NCBI GenBank assembly: GCA_043778225.1
Contig: JAYWGM010000099.1
Location: 1 to 62,271 of the forward strand
Source of the DNA: Deinococcales bacterium
Lineage (GTDB): Bacteria; Deinococcota; Deinococci; Deinococcales; JAAFIG01
Length of the DNA stretch: 62,271 nucleotides
Reading direction: 5' to 3'
A program made the translations under genes and the position numbers. The notes under the pieces are model-generated. The model was not told the origin of the DNA, searched no databases, and saw only the letters and a program-made list of their open reading frames with translations. Positions 1 through 62,271 of this stretch are shown piece after piece. Position 1 is the stretch's first letter. Each line of letters starts with the position of its first letter.

Positions 1-60
1 AAAGGTTAAAAGGTTAAAAGGTTAAAAGGTTAAAAGGTTAAAAGGTTAAAAGGTTAAAAG
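1..60. repeat. Tandem 8-mer repeat (AAAGGTTA)n, about 7.5 units, cut by the window start
   Basis: Perfect repetition read directly; degenerate inverted copies follow at about 71-94. Confidence 0.95.
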
Positions 61-99
61 GATGCGCTCGTTTAACCTTTTCTACTTTTTACCTCGCCC

Positions 100-723
100 C
101 TAGCCCAGTCCTTCGACATATTTCTTTAAGCCCTCGAGGGCTTCTCGAGTGCCTTTTTCTTGAGTTTGGATGGCTCGTTTTTGTAGCCACTTAAAACGTG
201 GTACATAGGTTCTGGTTAGGGTCACTTCTGTGCCGCCCTTGGTGGGGGCAAACGCCCAAGACTCAGCAATACCCGCCAGTAAAATTGAGCCGCCCTTGGT
301 GGCTTGCAGTACAAAACCGTTTGGCGCTCTTAAAAATTCGTAGCGAAACTGAAAGCCACCCAATAGAATACTGTTGTAGGTCAGTTCTAAATATACGCCT
401 TCGGCAGCCTTGCTGGGTACGGGTACTTTTTTCTTTGGGTCTGGCGATAAAAACTGCGAACGAGTCACGGTTTTATCCCATTTGGCACGTTCGTTTTGCG
501 GCAAAGCCGCATAGTACACTTTTTCGGGACGCGCCCGAATGACAATTTTTTCGGTCAGTGTCATCGGCTGATAACGCTCACGGGCTTTCTCGAGTTTGGC
601 TTTTTTCTTGGGGTCTTGCTCGAGAATGGCTTGCTGTTGTGCCACAGCCCCGGGGCGCATTTCCTTAGGAAGTTTGGCGCGGCGCTGCTGCATTTGTTGA
701 AAAGGAGGACGGTTACGTGACAT
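100..723 (-). CDS. SRPBCC/START-like family protein
   Basis: IVIRARPEKVY...WD and ESWAF...GTEVTL motifs; start moved to the ATG at 723, which follows a TAGACT -10 box. Confidence 0.7.
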   Translation of the reverse strand: MSRNRPPFQQMQQRRAKLPKEMRPGAVAQQQAILEQDPKKKAKLEKARERYQPMTLTEKIVIRARPEKVYYAALPQNERAKWDKTVTRSQFLSPDPKKKVPVPSKAAEGVYLELTYNSILLGGFQFRYEFLRAPNGFVLQATKGGSILLAGIAESWAFAPTKGGTEVTLTRTYVPRFKWLQKRAIQTQEKGTREALEGLKKYVEGLG

Positions 724-779
724 CTTAAACAGTCTAATACAAAAACCCGAAAGTATGTAAGCAAAGTGAGTAGGGGAAA

Positions 780-852
780 GTGCTGTTACGGAAGGCGTGG
801 AGCTTATTGGAGCGAAGCGGAAATAAGAGTAACGACTTACCGAGAACGGCAC
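780..852. repeat. Intergenic nested stem-loop (REP-like)
   Basis: GTGCTGTT...AACGGCAC outer stem, CTTATT/AATAAG inner stem, GAGCGAAGCG core. Confidence 0.5.
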
Positions 853-918
853 TAATATAAAAATTGATAACTTGTGCATCAGCCTTGTGTCTGCAAGAGC
901 CGATAAATTTGAATCCGC

Positions 919-1251
919 TTACGTCATGCGCTGAAATTGAAAACTCGAGACCGAAAATTCAAGCTCCAAATCTTGGTCGGAAACCTGATAGCCTGTCATA
1001 AATTCGATCGTCCGTCCGCTTGCCACACCCGAAGTCAGGGTCACTTCGAGTTGCCCTTGGTGCAAAGAAAAGTAACCGCGCAAACTCGGCTGCCCTTTGA
1101 CTTTGACACTGATTTTCCCCGAATGAAGTTCGATTTGTTGCCAAACTTGATGCGGCGAAACCGCCTCCCACTTTCCCTCGAGTTGACGAAGTGCGACTGG
1201 TTCGGGTTCGATTGGGATAATCGGTTTTTGAGAGCGAGCATAGGACATCAT
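919..1251 (-). CDS. Hypothetical protein (beta-rich)
   Basis: 110 aa ORF with GGAGG RBS. Confidence 0.6.
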   Translation of the reverse strand: MMSYARSQKPIIPIEPEPVALRQLEGKWEAVSPHQVWQQIELHSGKISVKVKGQPSLRGYFSLHQGQLEVTLTSGVASGRTIEFMTGYQVSDQDLELEFSVSSFQFQRMT

Positions 1252-1401
1252 TATTCAACCTCCGAAGTTCAGTATCGCATTCGAGCGTCACACGACCGTC
1301 ACATGACCGTCAAATCTAAGATGAGGACACTTTAAGCGACTTGCTGTCACAAAACCCTGACATCAGTCATACACTTTTTATACAAGAGGTAGACTATCAA
1401 A

Positions 1402-2067
1402 ATGCTCGAGAACAAAGTTTATTTAATTACTGGCGCAAGTGGAGCAGTGGCGGCAAGTATCATCAGCAAATATGGCAGCCTTGGGATAAACCTCGTGCTG
1501 CTCGACCGACATCAAGTCAGCCACAACACTGGCGAGGCAATCGTAGCTGACCTTGGCACGCTCGAGGGCGCACAAAAAGCCGTGCAGCAAATTATCAAAA
1601 CCCACGGACGTTTAGATGGGGTGATTCACACAATTGGCGGTTTTGTGATAGAGAGCATTCTCGAGTACAAACCCAGCACTTACGATCAAATGCTTGACAC
1701 CAACTTACGCACGACTGTCCATATGGCGGCGGCGGCTATGCTCGAACTCGAGAAAACCCAAGGATTTTTTGGGGCAATCGCGGCTGGGCAAGTGATACGC
1801 GGTGGCGCTGCAAATTTGGCGCTGTACACTGCCGCCAAAGGGGCAATGGCGCTCTTTATGAAAAGTTTGGCAGCCGAAATAAAAATGGTACGTTTTGGTC
1901 TGGTTTACCCGATGGGCACAATAGACACACCAAGCAATCGCAAAAATATGCCCGATAGCGATTTTGGCACATGGATAGACCCAAGCGAAATTGCCGAAGC
2001 CTTTGTCTACATGGCAACCCGCTCGAGCCGTGGGCGGGTGCAAGAGGTACAAGTACATCCAAATTAA
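1402..2067 (+). CDS. SDR family NAD(P)-dependent oxidoreductase
   Basis: ITGASG Rossmann motif and YTAAK (YxxxK) catalytic motif. Confidence 0.9.
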   Translation: MLENKVYLITGASGAVAASIISKYGSLGINLVLLDRHQVSHNTGEAIVADLGTLEGAQKAVQQIIKTHGRLDGVIHTIGGFVIESILEYKPSTYDQMLDTNLRTTVHMAAAAMLELEKTQGFFGAIAAGQVIRGGAANLALYTAAKGAMALFMKSLAAEIKMVRFGLVYPMGTIDTPSNRKNMPDSDFGTWIDPSEIAEAFVYMATRSSRGRVQEVQVHPN

Positions 2068-3614
2068 ATCTCGAGGTCTTGGGTTTGGCTTGGCTCGAGG
2101 CTAAAAACTTTATCCAAAGCCACAAAACCAAATTTTAAGAGGTACTCGAGAAAACTGTTGTGGCGCTCTTGGGGTATGCCATCTGGCAATAAGTGTTTCT
2201 CGAGCCGCAACAACTGACTTTGCAAATCGGTGTCGGCACGAAGCAACGCAGCCTGAAGCTTTTTGGGTAATTTATGCTCGAGTTGATATGCAATAGCGGC
2301 TTTTGAGCGTTCAACACTTTTGGCAAACCCAGACTCGAAATTGACCAAATCGGTGCTTAGCTCATTGATTTGCAAAGTCAGACTGAGCAAAGTATCCGAA
2401 ATTCGAGTTTTGGCAGCGTGGGTTTCAAATAATTGATTCCTGAGCTGCTCTCCCCTATCCTGCTGAAAAGCTCGAGCCGTCAAACCATATTTCTCGAGGA
2501 TGCGTTTAACGGGCGGTTCGATGATCGTCAGGCTCAAGCGCGGCGACATCAGGGGTTGCGGTACACCATGAAGCTGATAAACCTCGAGCAATTGCAAATG
2601 GTACGCCAATTCGCCCGGTCCAAGCACATTGACCACACTTGGAAAGACCGCATCTGCCAAAATTGACCGCAGTCCAGCCGCCGGAGTCAAACGCCTTGGG
2701 TCTGTCTCGAGGATGCTTAAAAGTTCAGATTTGGGGTAAGAACGGTCAGCCGTGAAGTGCTGCCCGTTAAATTTTAAGAGTCGGCGCTGACCATCTAAGC
2801 CCGTCAAAAAAAGGTTGGTCGCCTGTTCACCACGCCGCAATTGGGCGGTTAAACCAAGTGCCTCGAGTTGGGTAGCGGCTCGTTCAATCGCTGCACTCGA
2901 AAGAAGCGGCGACTCAAGTTCATGCCGAATGCCCTCTGCGAATAATGCCGCGATGCTTGGAAAAAGTGGATCAACAATGATTAAACCGTACTTACCAAGT
3001 AAGTGCATCAAGATTCTCGAGAACCATTCGGCATAATTGGTCGAGGCTGCAAAGGTTTTTTGCAACATCTCGAGGATTGGCGTTTTGAAAACCTCTGGGG
3101 CATCAAAAGCGCTTAAATGCTGCAAAATCGTCTCGAGGTACTGCGGCAAAAGTGGAATCGCACCAATTGAGCTATTTTTAGGTAAATCGAGGCTGATTTG
3201 ATGTTCGACCTCGGATAAATCCAAGAAAAACGCATGGCGCACTTCCTCAGAATCGTGGTCTTGGCTGGCTACCCAAAAAATCGGTAAGACTGGACGTTCT
3301 GGCGTGGAATAGCGCCGCGCCAACAAAACCGCATCCACTGCCTTAGAAATCGTATACGAAGCACCAAGCAATAAACCCGCTTGCTGACCGCTCATAACGG
3401 TTAAAGACTCTGGATGAGCCAGCAGTTTGGCATTCTCGAGAACCGCTTTGGGCGCACCAAGACTCTGGCTGTACTCGAGAACCGCTTTTGAAAGTGCCGA
3501 ATGGTCAACTTTGCGCGTGGTCTCGAGCGCCGCCGAAAAATCAGAATGTGGCAAACGGTGCAAAGAAAGAAGTTGGTTGGAACAATAAGCCTCGAGTGCA
3601 GTCACGTGGCGCAT
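2064..3614 (-). CDS. bshC: Bacillithiol biosynthesis cysteine-adding enzyme BshC
   Basis: SGQQAGL, FWVASQDHD, GPGELAY and PQER motifs; start is 3614 (ATG) or 3605 (GTG after TAGAAT). Confidence 0.9.
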   Translation of the reverse strand: MRHVTALEAYCSNQLLSLHRLPHSDFSAALETTRKVDHSALSKAVLEYSQSLGAPKAVLENAKLLAHPESLTVMSGQQAGLLLGASYTISKAVDAVLLARRYSTPERPVLPIFWVASQDHDSEEVRHAFFLDLSEVEHQISLDLPKNSSIGAIPLLPQYLETILQHLSAFDAPEVFKTPILEMLQKTFAASTNYAEWFSRILMHLLGKYGLIIVDPLFPSIAALFAEGIRHELESPLLSSAAIERAATQLEALGLTAQLRRGEQATNLFLTGLDGQRRLLKFNGQHFTADRSYPKSELLSILETDPRRLTPAAGLRSILADAVFPSVVNVLGPGELAYHLQLLEVYQLHGVPQPLMSPRLSLTIIEPPVKRILEKYGLTARAFQQDRGEQLRNQLFETHAAKTRISDTLLSLTLQINELSTDLVNFESGFAKSVERSKAAIAYQLEHKLPKKLQAALLRADTDLQSQLLRLEKHLLPDGIPQERHNSFLEYLLKFGFVALDKVFSLEPSQTQDLEI

Positions 3615-3711
3615 TCTAGGCTGCAAGGCGGGTTTGATGAAGTTGCCAAGGCTACTGAAAAAGCAAGGAGAAAAGAGAAATGGTTTGGTTGTTTTCCTCC
3701 TTCCTCTGCTT

Positions 3712-4923
3712 TTAATCCTCAAGCGGTAAAGTCAGGGTAAAGACTGCGCCACCCTCTGGACGATTGGCGGCTTGGACTTGACCACCGTGTAATTCGATAA
3801 TTGTTTTAACGATTGTTAAGCCTAGTCCACTGCCACCAGTCGAGCGGTTTCTCGAGGCATCGGCACGGTATAAACGCTCGAAGATACGTTCGAGGGCATC
3901 GGTCGGAATACCAGACCCGGTGTCGGAAATGGTCAGTTCGGCATGGTCTGAGTATTTTTTAACTTCAAGGCTGACCATACCGCCTTCTGGGGTATGGGAG
4001 AGTGCATTCTCGAGCAAGTTACCAATGGCTTGTTGCAAACGGTTCACATCCAAATGCAGTGAAATACTTTGCGCCACCCGCAATTCTAAGCGCACGTTCT
4101 TGGCTTTGGCGCGGGCGCGAAAATGTTCCAAGGCATCTCGAGCCACATTGGTCAAGTCACAAAGATGACGCTCTAAAGTCAGCACACCAGCGTCGGCTAA
4201 AGACAACAGCCTTAAATCTTCGACCAAACGCTCGAGCAACCGAGTCTGACCAGAGAGCCGCCCTACTGCCTCGAGATTAAGTGGCATCACCCCATCTTCA
4301 AGCGCCTCGAGTCGGGCTTTCATGGCAGTCAAAGGCGTGCGGAGTTCGTGAGCAATGTCGGCAAATAGACTGCGCCGTGCTAATTCTTGCTGTTCTAAGC
4401 CTTGTGCCATCTGATTAAAATTTTGTGCCAGTTTACCGAATTCGTCCTGTCCAGCAACGATGGCTCGAGCCGATAAATCGCCTTCAGCAACTTTAGCCGC
4501 CGCCGCCGAGACCAAGTGAATTGGCTGGCTGATGCGCCGCGCCAAAAGCAGCGCTAAACCAACTGCCAAAACCAAGGAAATACCGACTCCAGCCGTGACC
4601 GCTTGAATAACCCACGGACGTGGGTCAACAAATGGTAAAATGGTATTGCGTGGTGTGTCGTCGCGGCGACGATTGCCAGCGCCGCCATTACCAGCGCCAC
4701 CACCGTCTTTACTGCCCTCTTTTGGACAAACCAAACCGATTGGCGGCGTAGCTTGACAAAGGGTTTCAACACTGCGAATCACTTCCATAAACTCGCGTCC
4801 ACGGTCGTTAGGTTTACGATACTGTTGTTCGGCAAACAACAAAGTAACGACTGCCGGAATACCAATCGTTGCCAAAGCCACCAAAAGCATTGCCCCAATA
4901 ATCCGAGCCGCGATGCTGTTCAC
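3712..4923 (-). CDS. HAMP sensor histidine kinase (BaeS-like)
   Basis: Two TM helices, HAMP, AHELRTPL H-box, NLLENA, DTGSG and GSGLGL boxes; start uncertain. Confidence 0.9.
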   Translation of the reverse strand: MNSIAARIIGAMLLVALATIGIPAVVTLLFAEQQYRKPNDRGREFMEVIRSVETLCQATPPIGLVCPKEGSKDGGGAGNGGAGNRRRDDTPRNTILPFVDPRPWVIQAVTAGVGISLVLAVGLALLLARRISQPIHLVSAAAAKVAEGDLSARAIVAGQDEFGKLAQNFNQMAQGLEQQELARRSLFADIAHELRTPLTAMKARLEALEDGVMPLNLEAVGRLSGQTRLLERLVEDLRLLSLADAGVLTLERHLCDLTNVARDALEHFRARAKAKNVRLELRVAQSISLHLDVNRLQQAIGNLLENALSHTPEGGMVSLEVKKYSDHAELTISDTGSGIPTDALERIFERLYRADASRNRSTGGSGLGLTIVKTIIELHGGQVQAANRPEGGAVFTLTLPLED

Positions 4924-4972
4924 ACTGTCCACCGCAACAGGCATTTCATACTGTCCACCGCAACAAAGCATT

Positions 4973-5647
4973 TCATACTTCAAACCGCAAACGATAGCCA
5001 ATCCCACGCACTGTCTCGAGCATATCGCCAACCCCAGCATTGGCAAGTTTGTGGCGCAAATTCTTTAAGTGGGCATCCACGACGCGCTCCAAAGCATCGG
5101 ATTCTGGCAGCGCCACCTCGAGCAGTTCGGCTCGAGTAAAGGCTCGCCCAACCGCCCGCATTAACGCCTCGAGCAACCTAAATTCGGTCAAGGTCAAGTC
5201 AAGCCGTGCGCCACTGGCACGCACCGCGACACTTCGCACATCGAGTTCTAGATAGCCAACCCGCAGCACATCGAGTTTTTCTTCTGGACGCGCCCGACGC
5301 AGCACGGCTTTGACTCGAGCCACGACTTCACGCGGGCTAAAAGGCTTAACCACATAATCATCTGCACCCAATTCCAAGCCAATTAGTTTATCGATGTCTT
5401 CGGCTCGAGCGGTCAATAGAATCACGGGCGTATTGCCTTCAGCACGCACTTTTCGCAGCACCTCGAGACCATCTTTTTTGGGCAACATAATATCCAAAAG
5501 CATCAAATCTGGCTTTACGACACGGTGTAGCTCGAGCGCTCGTTCGCCATCGCTGGCACGTTCGGTGCGAAAGCCCTCTTTGCGAAGGTAAGCCTCGAGA
5601 ACATCGGCTATTTCGGTTTCGTCTTCGACCACTAAAACAATTGGCAT
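4973..5647 (-). CDS. OmpR/PhoB-family response regulator
   Basis: VVEDE, LLDIMLP, KPF and C-terminal winged helix ETVRGIGY. Confidence 0.95.
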   Translation of the reverse strand: MPIVLVVEDETEIADVLEAYLRKEGFRTERASDGERALELHRVVKPDLMLLDIMLPKKDGLEVLRKVRAEGNTPVILLTARAEDIDKLIGLELGADDYVVKPFSPREVVARVKAVLRRARPEEKLDVLRVGYLELDVRSVAVRASGARLDLTLTEFRLLEALMRAVGRAFTRAELLEVALPESDALERVVDAHLKNLRHKLANAGVGDMLETVRGIGYRLRFEV

Positions 5648-5710
5648 GGCGTGTAGTGTACTCATAGGACTAGATTTTGTAAGCAACTCATGAATACCAC
5701 TCGAGGAAAC

Positions 5711-5752
5711 TGTGAAGGTTTTGTGAAAGTATGAGTTCACATAACCTTCATG
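5711..5752. promoter_or_regulatory. Pair of oppositely oriented 11-bp-period direct repeats; candidate response regulator boxes
   Basis: TGTGAAGGTTTTGTGAA (5711-5727) and TTCACATAACCTTCATG (5736-5752) between the divergent genes. Confidence 0.55.
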
Positions 5753-5807
5753 CTGAGTTCTTAGAACCTTCGGCTCGAGTCAACAAACTAGGCTATCAGG
5801 AGAACCC

Positions 5808-9627: not shown

Positions 9628-10337
9628 TGCCCCCGATTCTCGAGTTAAATGGAATCATCAAAACCTATCAGCTTGGCGACCAAGAATTCCAAGCCCTGCG
9701 CGGGGTCGATCTCGAGCTTCAAAGCGGCGAAATGGTGGCGCTGATGGGACCGTCTGGCAGTGGCAAAACAACCTTAATGCAGATTATCGGCTTGCTCGAT
9801 TCGCCCTCCCAAGGCGCGTACCAATTGCGCGGACGCGATGTCACAACCTTGAACGAAAACGAACGGGCGCGGGCAAGAAACCTCGACATTGGTTTTGTTT
9901 TTCAGGCGTTTTATTTACTGACCCGCCAAAATGTTCTCGAGAACGTCGAAACGCCAATGATTTACGCTGGGATTCCCGCCAAGGAACGCCGTGAACGGGC
10001 GATGTGGGCGCTCGAGCGGGTTGGCATTAGCGACAAGTGGCGCAATCTTCCGAGCCAAATTAGCGGTGGGCAAAAACAACGGGTGGCAGTGGCACGGGCT
10101 TTAACCCTCGAGCCAGCGATTTTACTGGCAGATGAACCGACGGGTAACTTGGACTCACGCACCAGCATCGAAATCATGACCTTGTTTCAAGCCCTGCACA
10201 ATGAAGGCAGCACGGTGATTATTGTCACCCACGAACCCGAGATTGGCGAACACTGCGAGCGGATTGTTCGACTGCGCGATGGTTTACTCGAGTCCGATAC
10301 ACCCAACCGCTCGATTCGCAAGGCGGTGGCAGCATGA
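9627..10337 (+). CDS. ABC transporter ATP-binding protein (MacB/LolD type)
   Basis: [27 protein letters not shown]. Confidence 0.95.
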
Positions 10338-11623: not shown

Positions 11624-11704
11624 ACGGCTACAAAACGTCAAAAGTAGGATGAGGCAAGCCTATGTACTCCAACTTAATCAAAAAATTCGTGTACAACGCA
11701 AATC

Positions 11705-11825: not shown

Positions 11826-11910
11826 AAATCTGAGTGCCTTTGGGCTTCTTGGTCAGATATATAGGGATTCGCCCTACAAAACCCATTTTCCCTTTTCTCA
11901 GGAGGTTTTT

Positions 11911-18754: not shown

Positions 18755-19460
18755 TGGAATACCAGAGCCTAGTCCTCGAGTGTCTGAGTTTGCCAGTCCT
18801 CGAGTTGCTGAGTTTGACAGTCCTCGAGTTGCTGAGTTTGACAGTCCTCGAGTGTCTGAGTCCAATCCATCTCGAGTCCGTCCATGGCGTTTACGGCTGA
18901 ACGGCTGGTTGCGCTGGCTGCATATTTACACTTCAATGCTCAGTTTAATTATCGTGCTGTTTTTTTCGGTCACAGGCATCACCTTAAATCATCCCAATTG
19001 GCTGTTTGGCACAGCCGAGACTCGAGTCGAAAAAACGGGTATTCTGCCCAGTGCTTGGCGCTCGGGCGACGACATCAACTGGCTGGTGGTGGTCGAGCAT
19101 CTGCGGGCTACCGATGGGGTACAAGGCAGGGCAGCCGATTTTCGTTCTGACAGTTCCGAAGCCTCGTTGCGTTTTGCTGCGCCAGGCTACACCGCCGATG
19201 GTTTTATCAACACCAAGACTGGCGCATATACCTTGAGCATCTCGAGTCAGGGCTTTGTGGCTGCGATCAACGATTTTCACCGTGGACGCAATGCGGGTGG
19301 TGTTTGGGCGGTGCTGATTGATGTGGCTGGTTGGTTTTTGGTGCTGATTTCTTTAACCGGTTTAGGCTTACTTTTTTACCTCAAAAAAATCCGTGTTGCC
19401 GCCATCCTGAGCATGTTACTTGGCGGCGGTATCATGATTGCCCTGATGCACTTTTTCTAA
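18732..19460 (+). CDS. PepSY-associated TM helix protein
   Basis: RWLHIY, SVTGITLNHP, DFHRGR; TTG start after GGAGG. Confidence 0.85.
   Translation: MSSAQKASGIPEPSPRVSEFASPRVAEFDSPRVAEFDSPRVSESNPSRVRPWRLRLNGWLRWLHIYTSMLSLIIVLFFSVTGITLNHPNWLFGTAETRVEKTGILPSAWRSGDDINWLVVVEHLRATDGVQGRAADFRSDSSEASLRFAAPGYTADGFINTKTGAYTLSISSQGFVAAINDFHRGRNAGGVWAVLIDVAGWFLVLISLTGLGLLFYLKKIRVAAILSMLLGGGIMIALMHFF
18771..18860 (+). repeat. 24-bp tandem repeat, about 4 units, each with CTCGAG
   Basis: AGTCCTCGAGT(GT/TG)CTGAGTTTG(C/A)C, encoding SPRV(S/A)EF(A/D). Confidence 0.9.
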
Positions 19461-37228: not shown

Positions 37229-38389
37229 ATGTATCGTCAACGCCTGATTGCTCCGGGTCCTGTGGAAATTAGCCCAGCCGTACAACAAGCCCTCGCCAGC
37301 CGCCAATTGCATCATCGGAGTCCCGAGGCAAAGGTCGTGGTCAAACGCGCTCGAGAATTGCTGCGGGTCGTGGCGGGTGTCTCTGAGGCGATTGAACCAA
37401 TTATCCTGACCAGTAGTGGCACAGGTGCATTTGAGGCAATTTTGACCAGTTTGGTGGCTCGAGAGGACAAAGTGCTGAGCATCAGCGCCGGCAAATTTGG
37501 CGAACGCTGGGCAGACATGGCAAAAGCCCTTGGGTACACAGTGCAGGAAACTCGGCTCGAGTGGGGAACGGCTATTTCTATTGCTGCTGTAAAAGCCTTA
37601 CTCCAAGCAAACCCAGATGCCAAAGCCCTTTTAATCACCCATTCAGAGACCAGTACAGGTGTGCTGCACGACCTCGAGGGTATTGCTAAAGCTGCAAAAG
37701 CCATCAACCCAAACATTTTGCTGCTGGTGGATGCGATTACCAGTCTTGGCGTGGCAGAACTCAGACTCGAGGCATGGGGCTTAGATGCGGTCATTAGTGG
37801 TTCACAAAAAGCCACGGGCGCACCTCCGGGACTGGCATTTGCTTTTCTCGCCCCTCGAGCCTTGACGGTTTTGGGGCAGGGCGAACACAAGGTTCGCCCC
37901 TACTATTTTGATTTACGCCGTGAGGTTAAAGTCCAAGCCACGGGCGAAACGGCTTTTACCCCTGCTATTAACTTAATTGTGGGCTTAAATGCTGCCCTCG
38001 AGCCGATGGCAGCTGAAATTTTAGAACATGGACTCGAGACGTGGTGGGAAAATAAAAAAGCCTTGAACGAAGCGCTACTGGCTTGTGCTGTGGCGCTTGG
38101 CTGCACCAGTTATGCCAGTGTCCCGAGTCCAGCTTGTGTGACGCTTGTGCCACCTGCGCCAATCAGTGGGCGTGAGCTTTGGGCAGCTTTGCTCAAGCGT
38201 GGCGCAAGGGCGCAAACGGGGCAGGACGCGATTAAAGATGTTATTTGCCGCATTTCTTTTATGGGGCATTTTGACCGCTACGACGCACTCAGTTTTGCGG
38301 GGTTACTTGAGGAAGCGCTTTTGGATTGTGGCGCGGTTTTTACTCGAGGGGCTGGGGTGGCGGCGTTGTGGGCGGCACTCGAGGTATAG
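37229..38389 (+). CDS. Class V PLP aminotransferase (alanine-glyoxylate/serine-pyruvate type)
   Basis: APGP, HSETSTG, VDAITS, SGSQKA. Confidence 0.95.
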   Translation: MYRQRLIAPGPVEISPAVQQALASRQLHHRSPEAKVVVKRARELLRVVAGVSEAIEPIILTSSGTGAFEAILTSLVAREDKVLSISAGKFGERWADMAKALGYTVQETRLEWGTAISIAAVKALLQANPDAKALLITHSETSTGVLHDLEGIAKAAKAINPNILLLVDAITSLGVAELRLEAWGLDAVISGSQKATGAPPGLAFAFLAPRALTVLGQGEHKVRPYYFDLRREVKVQATGETAFTPAINLIVGLNAALEPMAAEILEHGLETWWENKKALNEALLACAVALGCTSYASVPSPACVTLVPPAPISGRELWAALLKRGARAQTGQDAIKDVICRISFMGHFDRYDALSFAGLLEEALLDCGAVFTRGAGVAALWAALEV

Positions 38390-38396
38390 TTCTGAG

Positions 38397-39128
38397 ATGA
38401 TAACTGTTGAACAAAAAAAGCTAATTTTGGAGGGCGCAACTACTTGGTTTGAAGAAGTAATTGTCAAAAATCATATCGAAAATACCCAAAAGTTAGCAAA
38501 TCCAAAAGAATTAAACATCAATCCGTTTCTGGTTTCCTATTTAGCGCAATTTGCTTACGGCGAAGTCACAGCACAAACTTTGGCTCGGGCTTTAATTGTT
38601 CCGCGTATCATGTCAACTTCGATTAACACTTCCTTTGGGCAGAATATGCAGCAATTCATGACTGACGTACTAGGTCCGGTTTTCGGTTCAATGATTCCCG
38701 GTTTAGACATCGAATTTACAGATGCAGTTGATGGACGCAAAAAATTCTGCCAAGTCAAACTGGGTCCAAATACGATCAACAAAGATGATGTAACCACCAT
38801 TCATCAGCATTTTGATGCGTCTAAGCGGTTAGCCAAACAAAATAGTCTTGTGGTTGGACTCGAGGATTTTGTTGTTGGAATTGGGTACGGCACAACATCA
38901 GAAATCTCTGGGCATTACAAGCGCTTGCGTGACGATTACCATTATGCTTTGTATGTTGGTCAAGAATTTTGGTATCGCCTAACTGGGGATACGACTTTTT
39001 ATGCAGACCTGATTTGGGCAATGGCATCAGCCGCCAATAACGCCGAATCTCAGAAAATCATTGAAGAGACGATTACAGAATTAGCCTCCAGCAAAACAAT
39101 TCAAGGTATTCTTGAGGGAAGATTTTAG
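38397..39128 (+). CDS. Type II restriction endonuclease (EcoO109I/PmeII-like)
   Basis: NINPFL, SINTSFG, GLDIEF, CQVKLGPNTIN; convergent with C5 MTase. Confidence 0.8.
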   Translation: MITVEQKKLILEGATTWFEEVIVKNHIENTQKLANPKELNINPFLVSYLAQFAYGEVTAQTLARALIVPRIMSTSINTSFGQNMQQFMTDVLGPVFGSMIPGLDIEFTDAVDGRKKFCQVKLGPNTINKDDVTTIHQHFDASKRLAKQNSLVVGLEDFVVGIGYGTTSEISGHYKRLRDDYHYALYVGQEFWYRLTGDTTFYADLIWAMASAANNAESQKIIEETITELASSKTIQGILEGRF

Positions 39129-40366
39129 AATAATCTGGTTTGAAGCTCGAGTGATTTTTTGGTGCTGACTTGTTCCATTGTGCCTAAATCTGGTTTGTTC
39201 TCGAGCATTGCAATTAAGCATCGCCCAATGTGATACCCAAGATTAACAGGTACAGCATTACCAATTTGTTTGTACTGGCTGGCAAGCGAACCTGTAAATT
39301 GCCAATCGTCTGGAAAGGACTGTATTCGGGCGTATTCACGAATGGCAAGCGGTCGTGTCTGGCTCGGGTGGCAACGCTCGGTTTGTTTTTGGGCTGGGCT
39401 ACAAGTTAAGGTCAGCGAAGGTTCATCCCATGCTAAACGCCGTGCCATACCTGTTTTTCCACCACCAAGGTGATAACTTGCGCCCATGAATTCGCGCTGT
39501 AGCGTTTCGGGTAAATCTTTCCAGTAGCCGCCTTCGGGTATTAGCTCGAGAATGCTACGTTTTTTTGGCGGATATTGTTGACCTGCCGAGTCTGGCACAT
39601 TGCGTAGCGCTTCACGCACTGAAATTGTGTAGTCTTGTTCTTTAGGAAATAAAACTGGCAAGTCAAGGTCTTTACGAACACCAAGCACAATTAAACGTTC
39701 ACGTTTTTGGGCAACATCAAGATACTGCGCTCTCAAAACCCGATATGCAACGTTATATCCAAGTTGCTCGAGAACGTCCACCATTGTCGCCAGAGTGCGT
39801 CCTTCATCATGACGTTCGAGTCCTCGGACATTTTCACCAACCAATATTTTAGGTTTTACTTCCTGAATGGCTCGAGCAAATTCGTAAAACAGTGTGCCTC
39901 TGGTGTCTTCAAAACCAAGGCGTTGACCAGCGTAACTAAAGGCTTGGCATGGAAAACCACCCACCACAATTTCGGCTTTGATAGGCTTAAAATTCACCTC
40001 GCGGACATCTTGATGAATCACATTCCAGCTTGGTCGGTTGGTTCTCAGTGTTTGTACTGGGTTTTTATCAAATTCTACCAGCATTGCCGACTGAAGCCCT
40101 GCGTGTTCTAAGCCAAGTGCCATGCCACCTGCTCCAGCAAATAATTCCAGTGTGCTAAATTTACTTTTTTGCTTGGTTTGTAGCACTTGAAAACCCTGTG
40201 CTGATTCGGTTTTGAGTTGAATTCTGGTTATTTCTTCGAGCGAAAAAACCCGATGGTTATACTGGTCTCGAGCCGATTTAATTAAGCCTTTTTTCTCCCA
40301 GCGCCGAATTGTGTCGGGGGAAATTGCAAGGTGTTCGGCTGCACTGGAAATACTTACGCCATTCAT
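39125..40366 (-). CDS. DNA cytosine-5 methyltransferase with N-terminal MerR-type HTH
   Basis: ELFAGAGG, GFPCQ, ENV, QKRER, QIGNAV; DTIRRWEKKG HTH. Confidence 0.95.
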   Translation of the reverse strand: MNGVSISSAAEHLAISPDTIRRWEKKGLIKSARDQYNHRVFSLEEITRIQLKTESAQGFQVLQTKQKSKFSTLELFAGAGGMALGLEHAGLQSAMLVEFDKNPVQTLRTNRPSWNVIHQDVREVNFKPIKAEIVVGGFPCQAFSYAGQRLGFEDTRGTLFYEFARAIQEVKPKILVGENVRGLERHDEGRTLATMVDVLEQLGYNVAYRVLRAQYLDVAQKRERLIVLGVRKDLDLPVLFPKEQDYTISVREALRNVPDSAGQQYPPKKRSILELIPEGGYWKDLPETLQREFMGASYHLGGGKTGMARRLAWDEPSLTLTCSPAQKQTERCHPSQTRPLAIREYARIQSFPDDWQFTGSLASQYKQIGNAVPVNLGYHIGRCLIAMLENKPDLGTMEQVSTKKSLELQTRLF

Positions 40367-49950: not shown

Positions 49951-52900
49951 GTGTCCTTACAGCTTATTCGCCAATATCAAAGCAACCTCGAGAAAATTGT
50001 GCAGTACGGCGGCACACGCAACGAAACCAGTCTGCGAGCCGCTTTTCAAGAACTGCTGAGCCACTGGGCGCGAGGGCAAGAACTCGAGCTTGTGCCAGAA
50101 GTCAGTATTAAAGTTGGTAAAAACACCATCCGACCCGATGGCACACTGAAAAACGCCCTGCGCCAAAGCCTCGGCTACTGGGAATCCAAAGACGAATCGG
50201 ACGACCTCGAGACAGAAATCCAGAAAAAATTTGCCAAGGGCTACCCCAAGGACAACATTTTATTCGAGGACACCCAGACAGCCGTGCTGATTCAACACGC
50301 CCAAGAAGTGGCTCGAGCCGAGATGTCGGACAACGTGGCGCTGCACAAATTGCTCGAGACTTTTTTTAGCTTTGAACCGACCGAAGTGACCGAATTTAGG
50401 TTAGCCATCGAGCATTTTAGAACCGACCTTCCCGATTTACTCGAGGTGCTGCGCTTGGCATTGGCGACTGCCAGCAAAAACAAGGATTTTAAGCAAAAAC
50501 GCGCCACTTTTGTGCTGCTCTGCCAACAAGCCATGAACCCAAGTTTTACCGACCAAGACGCGGGCGAAATGCTGATTCAACATATTCTAACGGGCGAAAT
50601 TTTTAAGGGCGTTTTTGATAACGCCCAGTATTTTGAAGAAAATAACATCGCCCAGCAACTCGAGGCTTTAAGTAAATCGTTTTATGTTGGCGCAGTGCGG
50701 CGCGACGTGGACAGCAAAACCAAAACGTATTACGGCGCAATTAAGGCGGCGGCTGCCCAGATTGCCGACCACCACGAAAAACAAAAATTCTTAAAAGTGC
50801 TGTACGAAACTTTTTACCGCGCCTATAACCCAGCCGGCGCAGACAAGTTAGGCATTTTTTATACCCCAAACGAAATTGTGCGCTTTATGATTGAAGCCAC
50901 CGATGCACTGGTCGAGAAACACTTTGGCAAAAACCTAGCCGACCAAGGCGTGGAAATCCTCGACCCTGCCACTGGCACAGGCACGTTTATTACCGAGTTA
51001 ATCGAGTACCTACCAAAATCCAAACTCGAGCAAAAGTACAAGTTTGAAATGCACTGCAACGAGTTGGCACTACTGCCGTATTACATTGCCAACCTGAACA
51101 TCGAAGCGACCTACGCCCAGAAAATGGGCAAATACCAAGAATTCCAAAACATCATTTTGGTGGATACATTAGACAACACTGGTTTTGGCATTAAAGGCGC
51201 TCAGACCGACCTTTTTACCAGCTTAACCGAAGAAAATTTAGAACGAATCAAACGCCAAAACCAACGCTCAATTCATGTGATTATCGGCAACCCGCCCTAC
51301 CGCGCCAACCAAGCCAACGAAAACGACAACAACAAAAACCGCGAGTACCAAATTATAGACAAGCGAATTAAAGAAACCTACATTGCCGCCAGCACGGCGC
51401 AAAAGACAAAACTCTACGATATGTACGCCCGATTTCTGCGTTGGGCAACCGACCGATTACAAGACAACGGAATGATTGCTTTTGTCTCGAATAGTTCGTT
51501 CATAGATAGCCGTACCTTTGACGGTTTTCGTAAAGTGGTTGCCGAAGAATTTAACGATATTTACATCATCAATATGAAAGGCAACGCCAACACGAGCGGC
51601 GAAAGGCGTAAGCGTCAGGGCGGAAATGTTTTTAACGACCAGATTAAAGTTGGTGTTGCGGTTTATTTTTTAGTCAAACGCGAAGGAAAAACAGGCTGTC
51701 AGATTCACTATCTCGAGATTCCAGATTATTGGGGTGCAGACCAGAAAAAAGCCTTTTTTCAAGACAACCGCATCTCGAGTCTGACTTTTGAAAAAATCCA
51801 CCCCGACGAGAAGCACAACTGGCTAAACCAGCCCGAACACGACTGGGAAGCCTTTCTACCCATTGCCAGCAAAGAAAGCAAAGCCGCCAAAACAGATTCG
51901 CTCGAGACAACCATTTTTAAGTTTTTTTCGACAGGTGTTTCGACCAACCGCGATGAATGGATTGTGGATTTCTCGGCAGAAACAGTCAATGCCAAAATGA
52001 AATTTTTTATTGCCGAATATCAAAAACATTCTTCTGAGACAGAGCAATTCGAGGATGTCATCAAATGGTCTCGTAATCTCAAACGGCGCTTGGCTCAGGG
52101 CAAACGCGAGAAGTTTTTGGCATCTCGAGCCAAGCGCTTTTCTTACCGCCCATACTCGAGCTACTGGTTTTATGATTCTGATTTATTTGTAGACGAAGAC
52201 GGGGTTCGTTCGGAAATGGGTACAGAAGGAAATAATCCTGTTCTGGCACTCGATAAAGGCGAACGAGCCAGCAGCGTTTTGGCAACAAATTATCCGCCCG
52301 ACCTTCACTTTAACGGCGATTCTCAGTGCCTGCCGCTTTACCGCTATGAAAACGGTCAGCGCCTCGAGAACATCACCGATTTTGCGCTGTTGGCTTTCCA
52401 AAATCATTATGCGGATACCAGCATTTCTCGAGAACATATTTTTGCCTATGTTTACGCGGTGCTGCATCATTCGGCGTACCGCCAAAAGTACGCGCTTAAT
52501 CTGCGCCAAGAATTCCCTCGAGTTCCGTTTTATGATTCGTTAATGGTTTGGGTGGCTTGGGGGCAGCAGCTTTTAACCTTGCATCTGGATTTTGAAAGCG
52601 CCACGCCGTACCCGCTCGAGGAAATGATCACACCGCCCGAGACCGAAAACCCCGAAGCACTCGAGCGCTTACAAAAAGCCAAACTCAAAGCCGATGTGCT
52701 GCGTGGCGAAATTATTTTGGATGGCATCAGCACGTTGCGTGGTGTTCCGCCCGAGGCATGGGGCTATAAGCTGGGCAACCGCAGTGCGCTCGAATGGATT
52801 CTCGAGCGCTACAAAGAAACCACGCCCAAAGACCCAACGATAAAAGCCCGTTTTAACACTTACCGCTTTGCCGATTATAAAATTCAGGTGCTGGATTTAC

Positions 52901-52971
52901 TGCGTCGGGTTTGTACGGTCAGTTGTGAAACCATGAAAATTTTGGCGCAAATGCCAAGCGAAACGCTCTAA
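49951..52971 (+). CDS. Single-chain type IIG/IIL R-M enzyme (DrdV-like)
   Basis: RPDGTL...WESK nuclease, DPATGTG and GNPPY m6A MTase motifs, C-terminal TRD, no helicase. Confidence 0.9.
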   Translation: MSLQLIRQYQSNLEKIVQYGGTRNETSLRAAFQELLSHWARGQELELVPEVSIKVGKNTIRPDGTLKNALRQSLGYWESKDESDDLETEIQKKFAKGYPKDNILFEDTQTAVLIQHAQEVARAEMSDNVALHKLLETFFSFEPTEVTEFRLAIEHFRTDLPDLLEVLRLALATASKNKDFKQKRATFVLLCQQAMNPSFTDQDAGEMLIQHILTGEIFKGVFDNAQYFEENNIAQQLEALSKSFYVGAVRRDVDSKTKTYYGAIKAAAAQIADHHEKQKFLKVLYETFYRAYNPAGADKLGIFYTPNEIVRFMIEATDALVEKHFGKNLADQGVEILDPATGTGTFITELIEYLPKSKLEQKYKFEMHCNELALLPYYIANLNIEATYAQKMGKYQEFQNIILVDTLDNTGFGIKGAQTDLFTSLTEENLERIKRQNQRSIHVIIGNPPYRANQANENDNNKNREYQIIDKRIKETYIAASTAQKTKLYDMYARFLRWATDRLQDNGMIAFVSNSSFIDSRTFDGFRKVVAEEFNDIYIINMKGNANTSGERRKRQGGNVFNDQIKVGVAVYFLVKREGKTGCQIHYLEIPDYWGADQKKAFFQDNRISSLTFEKIHPDEKHNWLNQPEHDWEAFLPIASKESKAAKTDSLETTIFKFFSTGVSTNRDEWIVDFSAETVNAKMKFFIAEYQKHSSETEQFEDVIKWSRNLKRRLAQGKREKFLASRAKRFSYRPYSSYWFYDSDLFVDEDGVRSEMGTEGNNPVLALDKGERASSVLATNYPPDLHFNGDSQCLPLYRYENGQRLENITDFALLAFQNHYADTSISREHIFAYVYAVLHHSAYRQKYALNLRQEFPRVPFYDSLMVWVAWGQQLLTLHLDFESATPYPLEEMITPPETENPEALERLQKAKLKADVLRGEIILDGISTLRGVPPEAWGYKLGNRSALEWILERYKETTPKDPTIKARFNTYRFADYKIQVLDLLRRVCTVSCETMKILAQMPSETL

Positions 52972-53510
52972 AACTCGAGTCCATCGTAAATTTGCGCCAA
53001 AGTTAATGTTGCTTCAATGCACGGAATATCAATTTCGCCCGTTTCCTCGAGTGTCTCGAGCAACCACGTTTCGCCTTGACGCTTGTAGACTACCGCCAAC
53101 TTTGTGTGCTGCTCGATTAAAACATAACGCTGTACACTTGGAATTCGGGTGTACTCGGCTAATTTTTTGTTGGTGTCGGTATCAGCCGTGCTTGTCGAAA
53201 CCACCTCGAGCAGAAAACACGGTGTGTCCTCAAGCCGAGGGTGAGCATTGTCGAGGCAGTTAATCATAATGTCTGGATACCGATAACGGGTACTCGAGAC
53301 ACGCAACTGTATGGTTTTGGTTTGAAAGCGGCAGCCCTTGGCTCGAGCAAGTGGCGCTAAGGCAAGCGTGATATTCAAAACAATTTCTTCATGGCGTTTA
53401 CTTTCGCCTGCCATCGCGTAGAGTTTTCCGTCCACGTATTCGTGCCGAATCTCGGATTCTATTTCTTGCTTTAGGTATTCTGTTGCGCTCAGATTTGCTA
53501 GTAAAGTCAT
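52968..53510 (-). CDS. Uma2 family endonuclease
   Basis: RHEYVDG, YPD, EVVSTST, KLAEY. Confidence 0.9.
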   Translation of the reverse strand: MTLLANLSATEYLKQEIESEIRHEYVDGKLYAMAGESKRHEEIVLNITLALAPLARAKGCRFQTKTIQLRVSSTRYRYPDIMINCLDNAHPRLEDTPCFLLEVVSTSTADTDTNKKLAEYTRIPSVQRYVLIEQHTKLAVVYKRQGETWLLETLEETGEIDIPCIEATLTLAQIYDGLEF

Positions 53511-59952: not shown

Positions 59953-59962
59953 ATGGAGTGCT

Positions 59963-60217
59963 ATGAAACGTCCACACCGCTTGGTTATCGAAACCGATAT
60001 TACCGACAGCATTCTCGAGTTGCGCCTGCCCAATACCCATGCCAGACACCAAATCTCGGGGGCAGCAATTTTACTTTGGAACACTTGGAAACGCCAGCCA
60101 GACCTAGAGATGGGTATTCGAGCGGTGGTTAAAAAATATAACGTGCCACTTGCTCAAGCCCAAGCCGATGCCGAAAAACTTTATAGAGACCTTGAAACGG
60201 CTGGGTTGCTCGAGTGA
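59963..60217 (+). CDS. PqqD-like (RRE fold) small protein
   Basis: LW...YNVPLAQAQADAEKLYRDLETAGLL pattern; GGAG RBS. Confidence 0.65.
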   Translation: MKRPHRLVIETDITDSILELRLPNTHARHQISGAAILLWNTWKRQPDLEMGIRAVVKKYNVPLAQAQADAEKLYRDLETAGLLE

Positions 60218-60270
60218 TACCAAATTTGATAAGACAAATCCTTAGGGCTTTCCACGCTAGAATCTGGGTC

Positions 60271-61386
60271 ATGAAATGGTTTCTGTCTTTATTTTTGAGT
60301 GTACTGCTGGCTTCGGGGACTTTGGCGCAACTCGAGCAACCAGCCGCCTTGCCCAATACAAGTGCCGACCAAATCGCTGACCAAACGGTGCGCGATTGGC
60401 AAGCGGGGAAATTTAAGCCAGCCGTGCTTGACCCTAAAGCCGTTGCCGCGATCGAAAGCCCGACCGAATTGCTGCAAAAACAACTGCGTGCCTTGTCACA
60501 ACAAGTTCAGTTTACCCCAGCCCCGAAAGACGCTCGAGTCAGTTTTAACCTGCGCCGTGTCACCCAAGAAGAAAAAACTCGAGTCTATACTTATCCTGTC
60601 ACCTCTGATTCGCTGGGTGATGAAATCCTGACCGTGACCTTGGTTCAAGATGCCAGCACTTGGAAAGCCGAAAGTGTTCAAATCGGCACAAATGCTGATT
60701 TAATTCCAGAATTTGTCAAGACCATTTGGGGTGCTTGGTTGTTTGCCGCCATTTCGGCATTGCTGCTTTGGGCAAGCCTTGCCAAAACCCCATGGCGAGC
60801 CTTACTCGAGCAGAATGTCCAAACAATCAAAGCCTATAAAGGTATTTACATTGGCACATTTGCCTTTTTGTTTGGTTTATTTGCACTGGGAACACTGGTC
60901 GGTTTAGCCAACCCAAGCATCACCAAAGCAATTGGTGAATTTCTTGGCACGGTTTTGTCGGCAAATGGTGTGGCTGAACTGACCCAAACCAACGTTGCCA
61001 GTGCAGCTTTTGGGATTACATGGAACAATATGCGCTCTGGGATTTTTTTGACCAGTTTTGTACCGGGCAGTTTGTTTGCCGTGCCAGCCTATTTAATTGG
61101 GCTTTTCCAGTATCCATTTTATGGCTTGGCACTCGCCCCAGTTGGCACATTGCCTTTATCAGCGTGGCTGCTGCATATTCCGACGATTTTAATCGAGCTT
61201 GGCGCATATATTTTTATCGTTGCCTCGAGTGGCGTGATGCTTTACCGAATTATTAAAAAAACACCTTTTAGCTTTGCCTTTCTCGAGTACACGCGCTGCT
61301 TACCCATGGCGATTAGTTTTCTGGTGCTGGCAGCTTGGTATGAAGCCTTTGAAATTATTGTACTGATTCCACTTGTGCTGAAATGA
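60271..61386 (+). CDS. SpoIIM/DUF95 membrane protein with N-terminal secreted domain
   Basis: ITWNN, HIPTILIEL, LAAWYEA. Confidence 0.75.
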   Translation: MKWFLSLFLSVLLASGTLAQLEQPAALPNTSADQIADQTVRDWQAGKFKPAVLDPKAVAAIESPTELLQKQLRALSQQVQFTPAPKDARVSFNLRRVTQEEKTRVYTYPVTSDSLGDEILTVTLVQDASTWKAESVQIGTNADLIPEFVKTIWGAWLFAAISALLLWASLAKTPWRALLEQNVQTIKAYKGIYIGTFAFLFGLFALGTLVGLANPSITKAIGEFLGTVLSANGVAELTQTNVASAAFGITWNNMRSGIFLTSFVPGSLFAVPAYLIGLFQYPFYGLALAPVGTLPLSAWLLHIPTILIELGAYIFIVASSGVMLYRIIKKTPFSFAFLEYTRCLPMAISFLVLAAWYEAFEIIVLIPLVLK

Positions 61387-61973
61387 AAAAATGGTGGACT
61401 CGAGCGTTTTTTGGCTGCTTATTGTTTGGGGTTCTGCTCTACTCGAGCTTACTCTTTTGGGTGGCACTGGTTTCCGAAAGTAAAACCCCTCAAAATGCTG
61501 ATGCGATTATTGTGCTGGGCGCTCAGGCGTACTACCCGGCGGGGCGTTGGAATCCATGTTTGGTGGCTCGAGTAGAGCGTGGGGTCGAATTACTCCAAGC
61601 TGGTTTTGCACCGCGTTTGGTGTTAAGCGGCGGGGTAGACCAAGAAGATGGCGCAGTCGAAGCCAAAGTGATGCAGGAAATAGCGATTTCGTTTGGTGCT
61701 TTGCCCGAACAAACCCTGCTCGAGCCACGCAGTACCAGCACCGCCGAGAATTTGCGTTTTTCAAGTGCCTTATTGAGCAGCAAAAAGGTCTTGATTGTTT
61801 CTGACCCGTTTCATTTGGCTCGAGCTTCGGCGTTGGCGCGTAAGCTGGGGCTGCAAGCAACCGTGGTTGGTGCGCCAAAAAGCCCATGCTGGTCGCGCTT
61901 TGGGTTGTTCTCGAGATTTGCCTTGCGCGAACCACTGGCAATGATTGAAAATTGGTTGCGTGGCGATTTATAA
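61383..61973 (+). CDS. YdcF/DUF218 family protein
   Basis: DAIIVLG, SGG, EPRSTSTAEN, VSDPFHLAR, RE. Confidence 0.9.
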   Translation: MKKWWTRAFFGCLLFGVLLYSSLLFWVALVSESKTPQNADAIIVLGAQAYYPAGRWNPCLVARVERGVELLQAGFAPRLVLSGGVDQEDGAVEAKVMQEIAISFGALPEQTLLEPRSTSTAENLRFSSALLSSKKVLIVSDPFHLARASALARKLGLQATVVGAPKSPCWSRFGLFSRFALREPLAMIENWLRGDL

Positions 61974-62173
61974 ATCTAAGCAAAGGCATACAGTGCCTCG
62001 AAATGGCGGCTTACGATATTCAGAGTAAAGTCTTGACTTGACCTACTAGCTATACTAAACTTCTTTTGTGCAACTTTTGCTGGCTCGTCATCCAAACCGA
62101 CTCGATGCCGAACATCCCATACTGATTGAGAATTTACTCGAGTTCAGTGCAAATCAGCAACAAGCAGCAATTG

Positions 62174-62271
62174 ATACCAAATTAAGGTAAAGAATCGCTT
62201 TTTGATTCTTTACCCGACCAACGGGAGTATTAACGATACCGAATTTAACGCGAGAACGGCAGTTTGCCGTT
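62174..62271 (-). mobile_element. Second copy of the MITE-like repeat, cut by the window end
   Basis: ATACCAAATT end, GGTAAAGAATC/GATTCTTTACC stem, CCGACCAACGGGAGTA core, ATACCGAATTT. Confidence 0.7.

Follow-up and report, generated by a model that had tools for sequence, protein, structure and literature searches.

CTCGAG, a highly iterated palindrome of a Deinococcales genome and its relatives

The highly iterated palindromes (HIPs) of cyanobacteria, HIP1 (GCGATCGC) and its alternates, are short palindromes shared across whole clades that occur in all reading frames and in intergenic DNA and override codon choice (Elhai 2015, PMC4390886; Xu, Lawrence and Durand 2018, PMC5861425). As these papers describe it, HIP1 is absent from some related lineages, is tied in some members to orphan methylases and has an unresolved mechanism; the alternate HIP of Calothrix PCC 7103, GGCGCC, is also a hexamer. 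Here we describe the palindrome CTCGAG in a contig of 62,271 bases from a Deinococcales bacterium (the window, by which we mean the whole stretch analysed), in the genome to which the contig belongs and in that genome's relatives. Like the HIPs, it is in many-fold excess genome-wide, lies in all frames and in non-coding DNA, and is common to a clade, some related lineages being exceptions. It is a true highly iterated palindrome of the HIP1 kind, although phylum and word differ, and it is denser: HIP1 is quoted at 300-2,700 sites per Mb, CTCGAG reaches about 6,200. The original prediction, made from the letters of the window, had read CTCGAG as a HIP1-like genome-wide signal at the DNA level, and that reading was right. 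A literature search found no report of CTCGAG over-representation in Deinococcota.

The DNA uptake sequences (DUS) of Neisseria and the uptake signal sequences (USS) of Pasteurellaceae are likewise genome-wide, lie in all frames, can drive changes in protein sequence and are scarce in imported DNA. They are asymmetric words of 9-12 bases with a flanking consensus, at about 1 per kb, whereas CTCGAG is a bare 6-base palindrome with nearly random flanks at 6 per kb. Very-short-patch repair, which goes with Dcm-type methylases, is likewise sequence-specific and pushes near-sites towards the methylase site; 5-methylcytosine (m5C) methylases of CTCGAG paired with V. genes are listed for Nocardia and Rhodopseudomonas (Blow et al. 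2016, PMC4752239, Table S3). Tables S3-S5 of the same survey record N6-methyladenine (m6A) methylation of this very word, with no cognate endonuclease, in three species of the same order: M.Mru1279II (Mrub_2385) of Meiothermus ruber DSM 1279, with 99.5% of CTCGAG modified, M.Mch9957IV of M. chliarophilus DSM 9957 (94.1%) and M.Mhy14884I (Marky_0034) of Marinithermus hydrothermalis (94.6%). The genomes carrying these enzymes are 7-9x enriched in CTCGAG, but none of the three has an orthologue in the genome studied here or in its family. As far as its main text goes, the survey makes no mention of genome-wide CTCGAG enrichment and treats CTCGAG clusters at the Nocardia replication origin.

The source genome (labelled G000; other genomes are labelled G and genera g) is a 4.03 Mb assembly of 107 contigs that is 89% complete, and the window is its contig C99. 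Our own gene calls, which are rough, give 3,446 genes covering 87.5% of the genome, with 52 genes in the window. The window contains 416 CTCGAG against 8.18 +/- 2.68 (largest 13) in 100 dinucleotide-preserving shuffles, and its longest stretch without a site is 801 bases, starting at 23807. A hand count made with the original prediction had put about 47 copies in the first 6,000 bases; a recount of bases 1-6000 gives exactly 47. The sites, including five that stand in a regular array, are as follows.

1..62271, no strand: CTCGAG sites, 416 exact copies, one per 150 bases, across 52 genes and the spacers
18775..18876, + strand: five CTCGAG (18775, 18799, 18823, 18847 and 18871) at 24-base spacing in an imperfect 24-base tandem repeat, inside the PepSY_TM-like gene 18672-19460

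The hyper-abundance is confirmed as real and genome-wide. The source genome contains 24,877 CTCGAG (6.2 per kb), which is 26.7x the base-composition expectation; a Markov-corrected count, proposed as a check in the original prediction, leaves the enrichment in place at 73x (24,877 against 339 under a second-order model built on the site-masked genome). Among the contigs listed, the lowest density is 3.99 per kb. CTCGAG is the most frequent hexamer of the genome by about 3x, and the runners-up only overlap it (TCGAGC, for example, has 8,604 copies). Since the bases flanking the sites are near background and single-mismatch variants number at most 1,387 copies each, the enriched word has precisely these six bases. 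The RecJ gene at 45674-47896 carries 24 sites (10.8 per kb); its product has a Deinococci-type C-terminal domain (PF20748), which supports the placement of the source in Deinococcota.

The original prediction also held that the word lies in all three frames, on both strands and in intergenic DNA, and that amino-acid bias could not account for it. The frame counts, the shuffles and the non-coding density all agree with this, and occurrence on both strands holds, if trivially, for a palindrome. In the window 360 sites are coding (216 as CTC-GAG, 64 as nCT-CGA-Gnn and 80 as nnC-TCG-AGn), 55 are non-coding and one lies across a gene end, giving 6.8 per kb in coding and 6.1 per kb in non-coding DNA; 200 within-gene synonymous shuffles yield 40.2 +/- 5.6 coding sites (largest 58) in place of the 360. 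Genome-wide the densities are 6.21 and 5.92 per kb, and the three frames, in the same order, hold 13,058, 4,363 and 4,458 sites, 8-14x more than the approximately 1,635, 383 and 310 left by synonymous shuffling. The enrichment therefore neither disappears on codon shuffling nor is restricted to the Leu-Glu frame. Among 18,867 Leu-Glu pairs, 69.2% are spelled CTCGAG against 6.9% predicted by codon usage; CGA makes up 88.9% of the Arg codons in the nCT-Arg-Gnn context (13-20% elsewhere), and TCG 82% of the Ser codons in the nnC-Ser-AGn context (11-18% elsewhere). In duplex DNA of whatever location, a directional force works on this exact hexamer.

This force alters protein sequence as well as codon choice. 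The observed/expected ratio of the Leu-Glu dipeptide is 2.31 in the source genome, while that of Glu-Leu is 0.97; Leu-Glu reaches 2.15 in G021, from another genus of the same family, whereas a Deinococcus-like genome has 0.86 and a genome of Thermus composti 1.16. In the doubling of the dipeptide itself CTCGAG is unlike HIP1.

The strength of the force was estimated against a baseline of codon frequencies outside CTCGAG sites. The word occupies 69% of the opportunities offered by Leu-Glu, 56% of those offered by [SPTA]-Arg-[VADEG] and 43% of those offered by X-Ser-[SR], with natural-log odds ratios of 4.6, 3.9 and 3.6, respectively, and the natural-log fold-excess in non-coding DNA is 3.5-4.0. 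A single parameter, a log odds of about 3.5-4.6, fits all frames and non-coding DNA. The spacing of the sites is near geometric (coefficient of variation 0.998) with a slight shortage of short gaps; a gap of exactly 6, which would create GAGCTC, is never seen. Gaps above 1,200 bases make up 0.14% of the total against 0.056% expected, and site counts in 2-kb windows have a variance/mean ratio of 1.22. At short range the 3-base codon period stands alone, with no other periodicity.

The force acts independently at each possible position. This can be seen from orthologues of 17 window genes, compared with 1-11 relatives each, a small sample in which divergence is saturated and the pairs are not independent. 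In this sample 55% of CTCGAG positions are shared where amino-acid identity is at least 74% and 33% below that, and these shared positions are fully accounted for by amino-acid conservation multiplied by occupancy. Where both orthologues keep a Leu-Glu pair, the frequency with which both spell it CTCGAG is what the two separate occupancies predict when multiplied (0.558 vs 0.561; 0.610 vs 0.595), which means that the positions are filled independently in each lineage. Site-specific conservation beyond that of the amino acids was not seen in these 17 genes, whereas HIP1 sites are described as conserved above controls (Xu et al. 2018, PMC5861425).

Across the order Deinococcales, CTCGAG was counted in 151 genomes as sampled. 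A survey of relatives had been proposed in the original prediction, which also mentioned, as unverified, a similar enrichment in Meiothermus. That enrichment is real: genus g13, which includes a genome with the proteins of M. ruber DSM 1279, has 1.4-3.1 sites per kb. In the family of the source genome (f1) every genome sampled is enriched, and other lineages are graded or depleted, as follows.

Family f1, five genera, 16 of 16 genomes: 4.3-6.8 CTCGAG per kb
Genus g7 (Deinococcus-like, judged by size and GC), 38 genomes: 0.01-0.3 per kb, word avoided
Genus g9 (Thermus), 22 genomes: about 0.9 per kb, not above the reversed control word GAGCTC
Genera g13, g22 and g24 (Meiothermus, Allomeiothermus and Calidithermus by protein names), 16 genomes: 1.4-3.4 per kb
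Marinithermus-type G019, 1 genome: 2.95 per kb
Family f2, 40 genomes: up to 2.6 per kb, variable

The abundance of CTCGAG is a heritable clade trait with an equilibrium level that differs by lineage. Loci of 13 relatives, at G+C contents (GC) of 0.46-0.65, mostly have 3.3-8.4 sites per kb, with one G010 locus at 2.0.

Only 23 stretches of at least 1.4 kb in the source genome lack the word (51 kb in total), and 15 of them have a GC below 0.42. Eight annotated ones contain genes for exopolysaccharide and O-antigen synthesis and defence genes (NACHT, KAP, GmrSD-HEPN), and a ninth is a restriction-modification island on contig C40 (G000:C40:7700-11073). The occupancy of Leu-Glu by CTCGAG rises from 14.5% in genes with a GC below 0.36 to a plateau of about 72% at a GC of 0.47 or more. 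From the site-free AT-rich islands and this rise in occupancy it follows that imported DNA arrives without CTCGAG and gains it in place; the word accumulates with time in imported DNA, and its density can serve as a marker of recent import. The site-free AT-rich islands, that of C40 included, have a GC of 0.31-0.40, and the C40 island includes an alpha-type SPPY methylase ORF (9719-11032, - strand) that the gene caller had missed, together with two further genes.

Viral contigs were scanned for three CTCGAG close together. Many of the matches are GC-rich contigs that have both CTCGAG and GAGCTC, a codon effect, and a subset has the signature of family f1, with many CTCGAG and zero GAGCTC. One IMG/VR contig, G153, is the complete 110,308-base genome, with terminal repeats, of a myovirus-like temperate phage that encodes portal, capsid, contractile tail, family B polymerase, DnaB, primase, RecA-like protein, ligase, two methylases and an integrase. 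It has 318 CTCGAG (2.9 per kb; 4.6 per kb in non-coding and 2.6 per kb in coding DNA) and a Leu-Glu occupancy of 74%. A second complete temperate phage, the 37-kb G154, has 107. The force, or selection to match it, thus reaches phage DNA independently of the host replicase, since G153 has its own family B polymerase and yet shows the same pattern. The two methylases of G153 were considered as a shared driver and rejected, having no host orthologue. GAGCTC is absent from G153 (0 vs about 86 expected per strand), while other GRGCYC words are not avoided; judging by this, its host seems to restrict GAGCTC specifically.

An orphan XhoI-type methylase was the first of the causes named in the original prediction. 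The idea is partly supported, in that orphan m6A CTCGAG methylases are reported from the three relatives named above (PMC4752239), but the M. ruber-type family is not supported as the cause. The published genes can be placed in our sample: an Eco57I plus TaqI_C ORF at 2.438 Mb of the single-contig genome G040 (2.44 CTCGAG per kb) is identical in every residue to ADD29136.1 from M. ruber DSM 1279, and a TaqI_C ORF at 34.6 kb of G019 is letter for letter AEB10799.1 of Marinithermus hydrothermalis. By position and annotation these two proteins are probably Mrub_2385 and Marky_0034. A 55% homologue of the M. ruber methylase at 817 kb of its contig in G160 would fit locus tag 0814 of Calidithermus chliarophilus. 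A further homologue, in G029, is 51% identical to the M. ruber enzyme and adjoins a broken endonuclease gene of the XhoI family; this neighbour independently supports the CTCGAG specificity of the M. ruber-type methylase. At this locus (G029:C1:1094225-1096226) the endonuclease gene has two stop codons and the methylase is intact, as if a restriction system were on its way to becoming an orphan methylase.

The M. ruber-type family is patchy, with members in 11 of the 151 genomes. The co-occurrence of CTCGAG with an orphan methylase, put forward as a check in the original prediction, fails for this methylase family: the gene is found in none of the 16 family f1 genomes, the source genome included (best matches 26% identical), and in 9 of 33 genomes of the Meiothermus group, two of these copies being broken (6 of 26 in g13, one with a frameshift; 3 of 3 in g24, one with a stop codon; 0 of 4 in g22). 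In Thermus (g9) there is no orthologue in 32 genomes, three of which have homologues of about 30% identity. The methylases of G019, G029 and G015/G084 gave only local matches of 21-43% identity to the source genome in tblastn, the top one over 65 residues. Density does not follow the gene either: carriers in g13 have 2.2-2.4 sites per kb and non-carriers 1.4-3.1, and the densest Thermaceae genomes, G121 (3.4 per kb), G145 (3.1) and G109 (3.0), are without it.

A further case is that of M. silvanus DSM 9946 (here A. silvanus), whose methylome has five other motifs and no CTCGAG as tabulated in PMC4752239. Genome G158 matches this strain (aconitase 100% identical) and has 2.26 CTCGAG per kb, 6.8x base composition, with a Leu-Glu occupancy of 54%, figures that refer to 220 kb of chromosome among 240 kb read, out of 3.7 Mb. 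A single-molecule real-time (SMRT) methylome would miss m5C. Three readings fit: methylation by the M. ruber-type family is dispensable for keeping the word, the word persists in A. silvanus as a relic in slow decay, or an m5C enzyme that SMRT sequencing cannot see is active. Methylation by the M. ruber-type family does not set the density of CTCGAG.

The source genome codes for about 20 DNA methylases with no assigned specificity. The XhoI-family endonuclease (PF04555) has no match in it and is present in 5 of the 151 genomes, none of them in family f1. Among the C5, N6_N4, D12 and gamma-class methylases there is no orthogroup common to the source genome and five family f1 representatives; C5 enzymes are missing in G010, N6_N4 enzymes are missing in the single-contig G021 and the D12 matches are not orthologous, and all three classes were rejected as the driver. 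A TaqI_C-type gene (C65:15245-17197) was rejected as well, being present in only 3 of the 16 family f1 genomes and lying in a defence island with no cognate type II endonuclease. So was a solitary HsdM-like gene (of the G109/G010 type), which 8 of 15 family f1 genomes share with 7 of 39 Deinococcus-like genomes depleted in CTCGAG, and so was C15:53830-55419, whose product is the M subunit of an ordinary type I system with its S subunit encoded alongside. Family f1 thus differs from the HIP1 case also in having no methylase co-distributed with its word.

Our preferred explanation, held tentatively and with somewhat less than even confidence, is that a reader of duplex CTCGAG biases repair or gene conversion towards the motif, or exerts a very weak additive selection to the same effect. 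A host protein would recognise the duplex word and bias the outcome of recombination and mismatch correction, acting on copies of the genome, on incoming DNA and on prophage or phage DNA. The strand with an intact CTCGAG would be favoured, as molecular drive or as equivalent very weak per-site selection, and site-creating changes would fix tens of times more readily than site-destroying ones. The TaqI_C-type orphan m6A methylases of several lineages may feed such a system, much as methylated HIP1 does for transformation in Synechococcus. The uniform strength of the force, the near-Poisson and independent occupancy, the gain of sites in imported DNA, the phages and the clade-specific level point to a per-site process on any resident DNA. 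Several points weigh against a converting reader. No reader protein has been pinpointed, and the mechanism was reached by elimination. Biased conversion, weak additive selection and a lowered mutation rate at the sites would look alike in equilibrium frequencies. Converting repair should deplete its near-site substrates, yet one-mismatch neighbours are not depleted and the transition neighbours are 1.9-2.5x above expectation. The 89%-complete source genome yielded no Vsr-type endonuclease; as further differences from very-short-patch repair, the expected Vsr substrates CTTGAG and CTCAAG are 2x above expectation, and the effect sizes known for Vsr are small. DNA identity to the closest relatives, those of the genus included, reaches only 70-80%, and gains and losses of sites could therefore not be polarised; intragenomic repeats were too few for this purpose (only 43 alignments of at least 300 bases, about half as many distinct pairs, nearly all 80-90% identical). 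The hosts of phages G153 and G154 have not been established. A bolder reading, which we regard as possible but doubtful, is that a methylation-independent, sequence-specific system (biased conversion or repair, or self-recognition) would operate in part of Deinococcales and be imposed on phages, the orphan m6A methylases being secondary and dispensable. If true, it would be a new kind of genome-shaping molecular drive.

The other explanations are each less probable. Creation and upkeep of sites by methyl-directed processes is the model that Elhai proposed for HIP1 (PMC4390886), and for CTCGAG it would take the form of an orphan XhoI-site methylase that marks the word, with methyl-directed repair or conversion keeping the sites and with an unrecognised or non-orthologous methylase doing so in family f1. 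The three published enzymes with over 94% modification, the exact matches in two enriched genomes, the decaying XhoI-type locus, the TaqI_C architecture of the C65 gene among the methylases of the source genome, and the service of HIP1 by non-orthologous m5C and N4-methylcytosine methylases (Elhai 2015, PMC4390886) all speak for it. Set against the patchy distribution of the M. ruber-type gene (all Calidithermus, a minority of Meiothermus, no Allomeiothermus, no family f1), the dense Thermaceae without it, the enriched A. silvanus with its SMRT methylome blind to m5C, and the rarity or non-orthology of the other candidates, they leave the model rather unlikely. A DNA-uptake signal of the DUS or USS type, by which the competence machinery would prefer DNA with CTCGAG, is less likely again. 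All 16 family f1 genomes have ComEC and imported islands lack the word. Thermus takes up DNA unspecifically and has no specific enrichment, its CTCGAG being about as frequent as the GAGCTC control, which we count for the uptake model; recent work on HIP1 proposes that it, too, signals uptake or recombination (Rodriguez-Cruz et al. 2026, PMC13756078; Kamoku and Nielsen 2024, bioRxiv 10.1101/2024.09.10.611283). However, a bare hexamer with no flanking consensus offers little discrimination, the spacing is near-Poisson and not evened out, ComEC is near-universal (it is also in 10 of 14 control genomes), and phages with terminal repeats carry the word at high occupancy, although as temperate phages they could have gained it as prophages.

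Neutral accumulation, with CTCGAG as a cold spot or sink of mutation or through mutational bias alone, accords well with the uniform effect on coding and non-coding DNA, with independent occupancy and with near-sites that are not depleted. We nevertheless consider it improbable, and slightly more so than an uptake signal: an effect of 30-100-fold that is limited to a single hexamer calls for a sequence-specific protein in any case, the pattern recurs in a phage that encodes its own family B polymerase, and the force overrides amino-acid sequence. Still less credit goes to the idea that the sites are architectural, for an abundant nucleoid protein, or form a Chi-like self-mark that stops a translocating nuclease. 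High density and a clade-wide distribution would suit either role, and phages would be expected to share the word if DNA without it were attacked, but there is no helical or longer phasing and long gaps are not cut off, gaps above 1,200 bases being in excess. RecC (PF04257) was found in none of the 151 genomes, in a search whose E. coli control was positive and which did not extend to AddAB, and a RecBCD-type Chi role is therefore out. There is, finally, next to no chance that CTCGAG is a by-product of codon usage, amino-acid composition and the avoidance of palindromes or restriction sites. It is true that GC-rich relatives often use the codons CTC and GAG, that CTCGAG and GAGCTC abound together in some GC-rich viral contigs, and that the source genome avoids 32 of the 64 palindromic hexamers (observed/expected below 0.07). 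Yet non-coding DNA is as dense as coding DNA, all frames are far above synonymous shuffles, the genome has 24 GAGCTC to its 24,877 CTCGAG, and the avoidance of other words cannot lift one word 73-fold.

HIP1 has been unexplained for thirty years and known from one phylum; CTCGAG is a second, independent and denser case. The order provides a natural experiment, spanning 27-fold enrichment, 7-fold enrichment, no enrichment and strong avoidance, with cultivable species whose methylomes are published, one methylated at CTCGAG and one not, which puts the cause within reach of comparative genomics and simple genetics. New here are the link to the published methylomes, the patchiness of a proven methylase family, the counter-example of A. 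silvanus, the measured force, the independence test, the complete phage genomes and the extent of palindrome avoidance. In practice, the word flags imported DNA and candidate phages of these uncultured bacteria, and gene finders and selection tests have to reckon with the skew that it gives to codon and dipeptide statistics. XhoI is predicted to cut these genomes into pieces of about 160 bases, or to fail to cut them, depending on methylation.

The scarcity of the reversed word GAGCTC extends to 13 of the 16 family f1 genomes, with 0-25 copies each. It was considered as a mirror effect coupled to CTCGAG, a reading that was rejected because in the source genome the scarcity is part of a wider GDGCHC-type avoidance (GAGCCC is at 0.05, GAGCAC at 0.04 and GGGCCC at 0.001 of expectation), which ordinary restriction avoidance explains. 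Ordinary restriction pressure explains the avoidance of palindromes in general. Examples are GGGCCC (1 copy), AGGCCT (1), GACGTC (1), GGCGCC (3) and TGGCCA (18 vs 3,374 expected); all 4 Mb contain just 131 copies of the tetramer GGCC, and 97.7% of Phe-Glu codings are TTC-GAG, sidestepping TTCGAA. G021 avoids 15 of 43 testable palindromes, a set that overlaps with that of the source genome.

The original prediction saw no XhoI-type methylase in the window, which is right; two methylase genes of other types are present, one of them in a convergent type II restriction-modification pair (38145-40366).

38145..39128, + strand: EcoO109I-family endonuclease, convergent with the C5 methylase
39125..40366, - strand: C5 cytosine methylase with an N-terminal MerR helix-turn-helix, pairing with the EcoO109I-family endonuclease
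within 49951..53510: Type ISP ORF of 1,006 residues, with coupler, N6 methylase and specificity domains and without the nuclease-helicase part

The Type ISP ORF is followed by a putative endonuclease of the Uma2 family, and it has homologues in G011 at 58% and 37% identity. In Thermus (g9) all 22 genomes sampled have a TaqI_C-type methylase of about 400-430 residues (e.g., G016:C6:75252-78587), a genus-wide M.TaqI-like gene. The first approximately 170 bases (about 11665-11840) of ORF 11662-12552, which belongs to no family, recur in at least nine more copies at 74-91% identity, on contigs C41 (three copies), C93, C28, C72, C101 and C19 of the source genome and also in G003; the stretch is either a repeated N-terminal module or a small mobile element.

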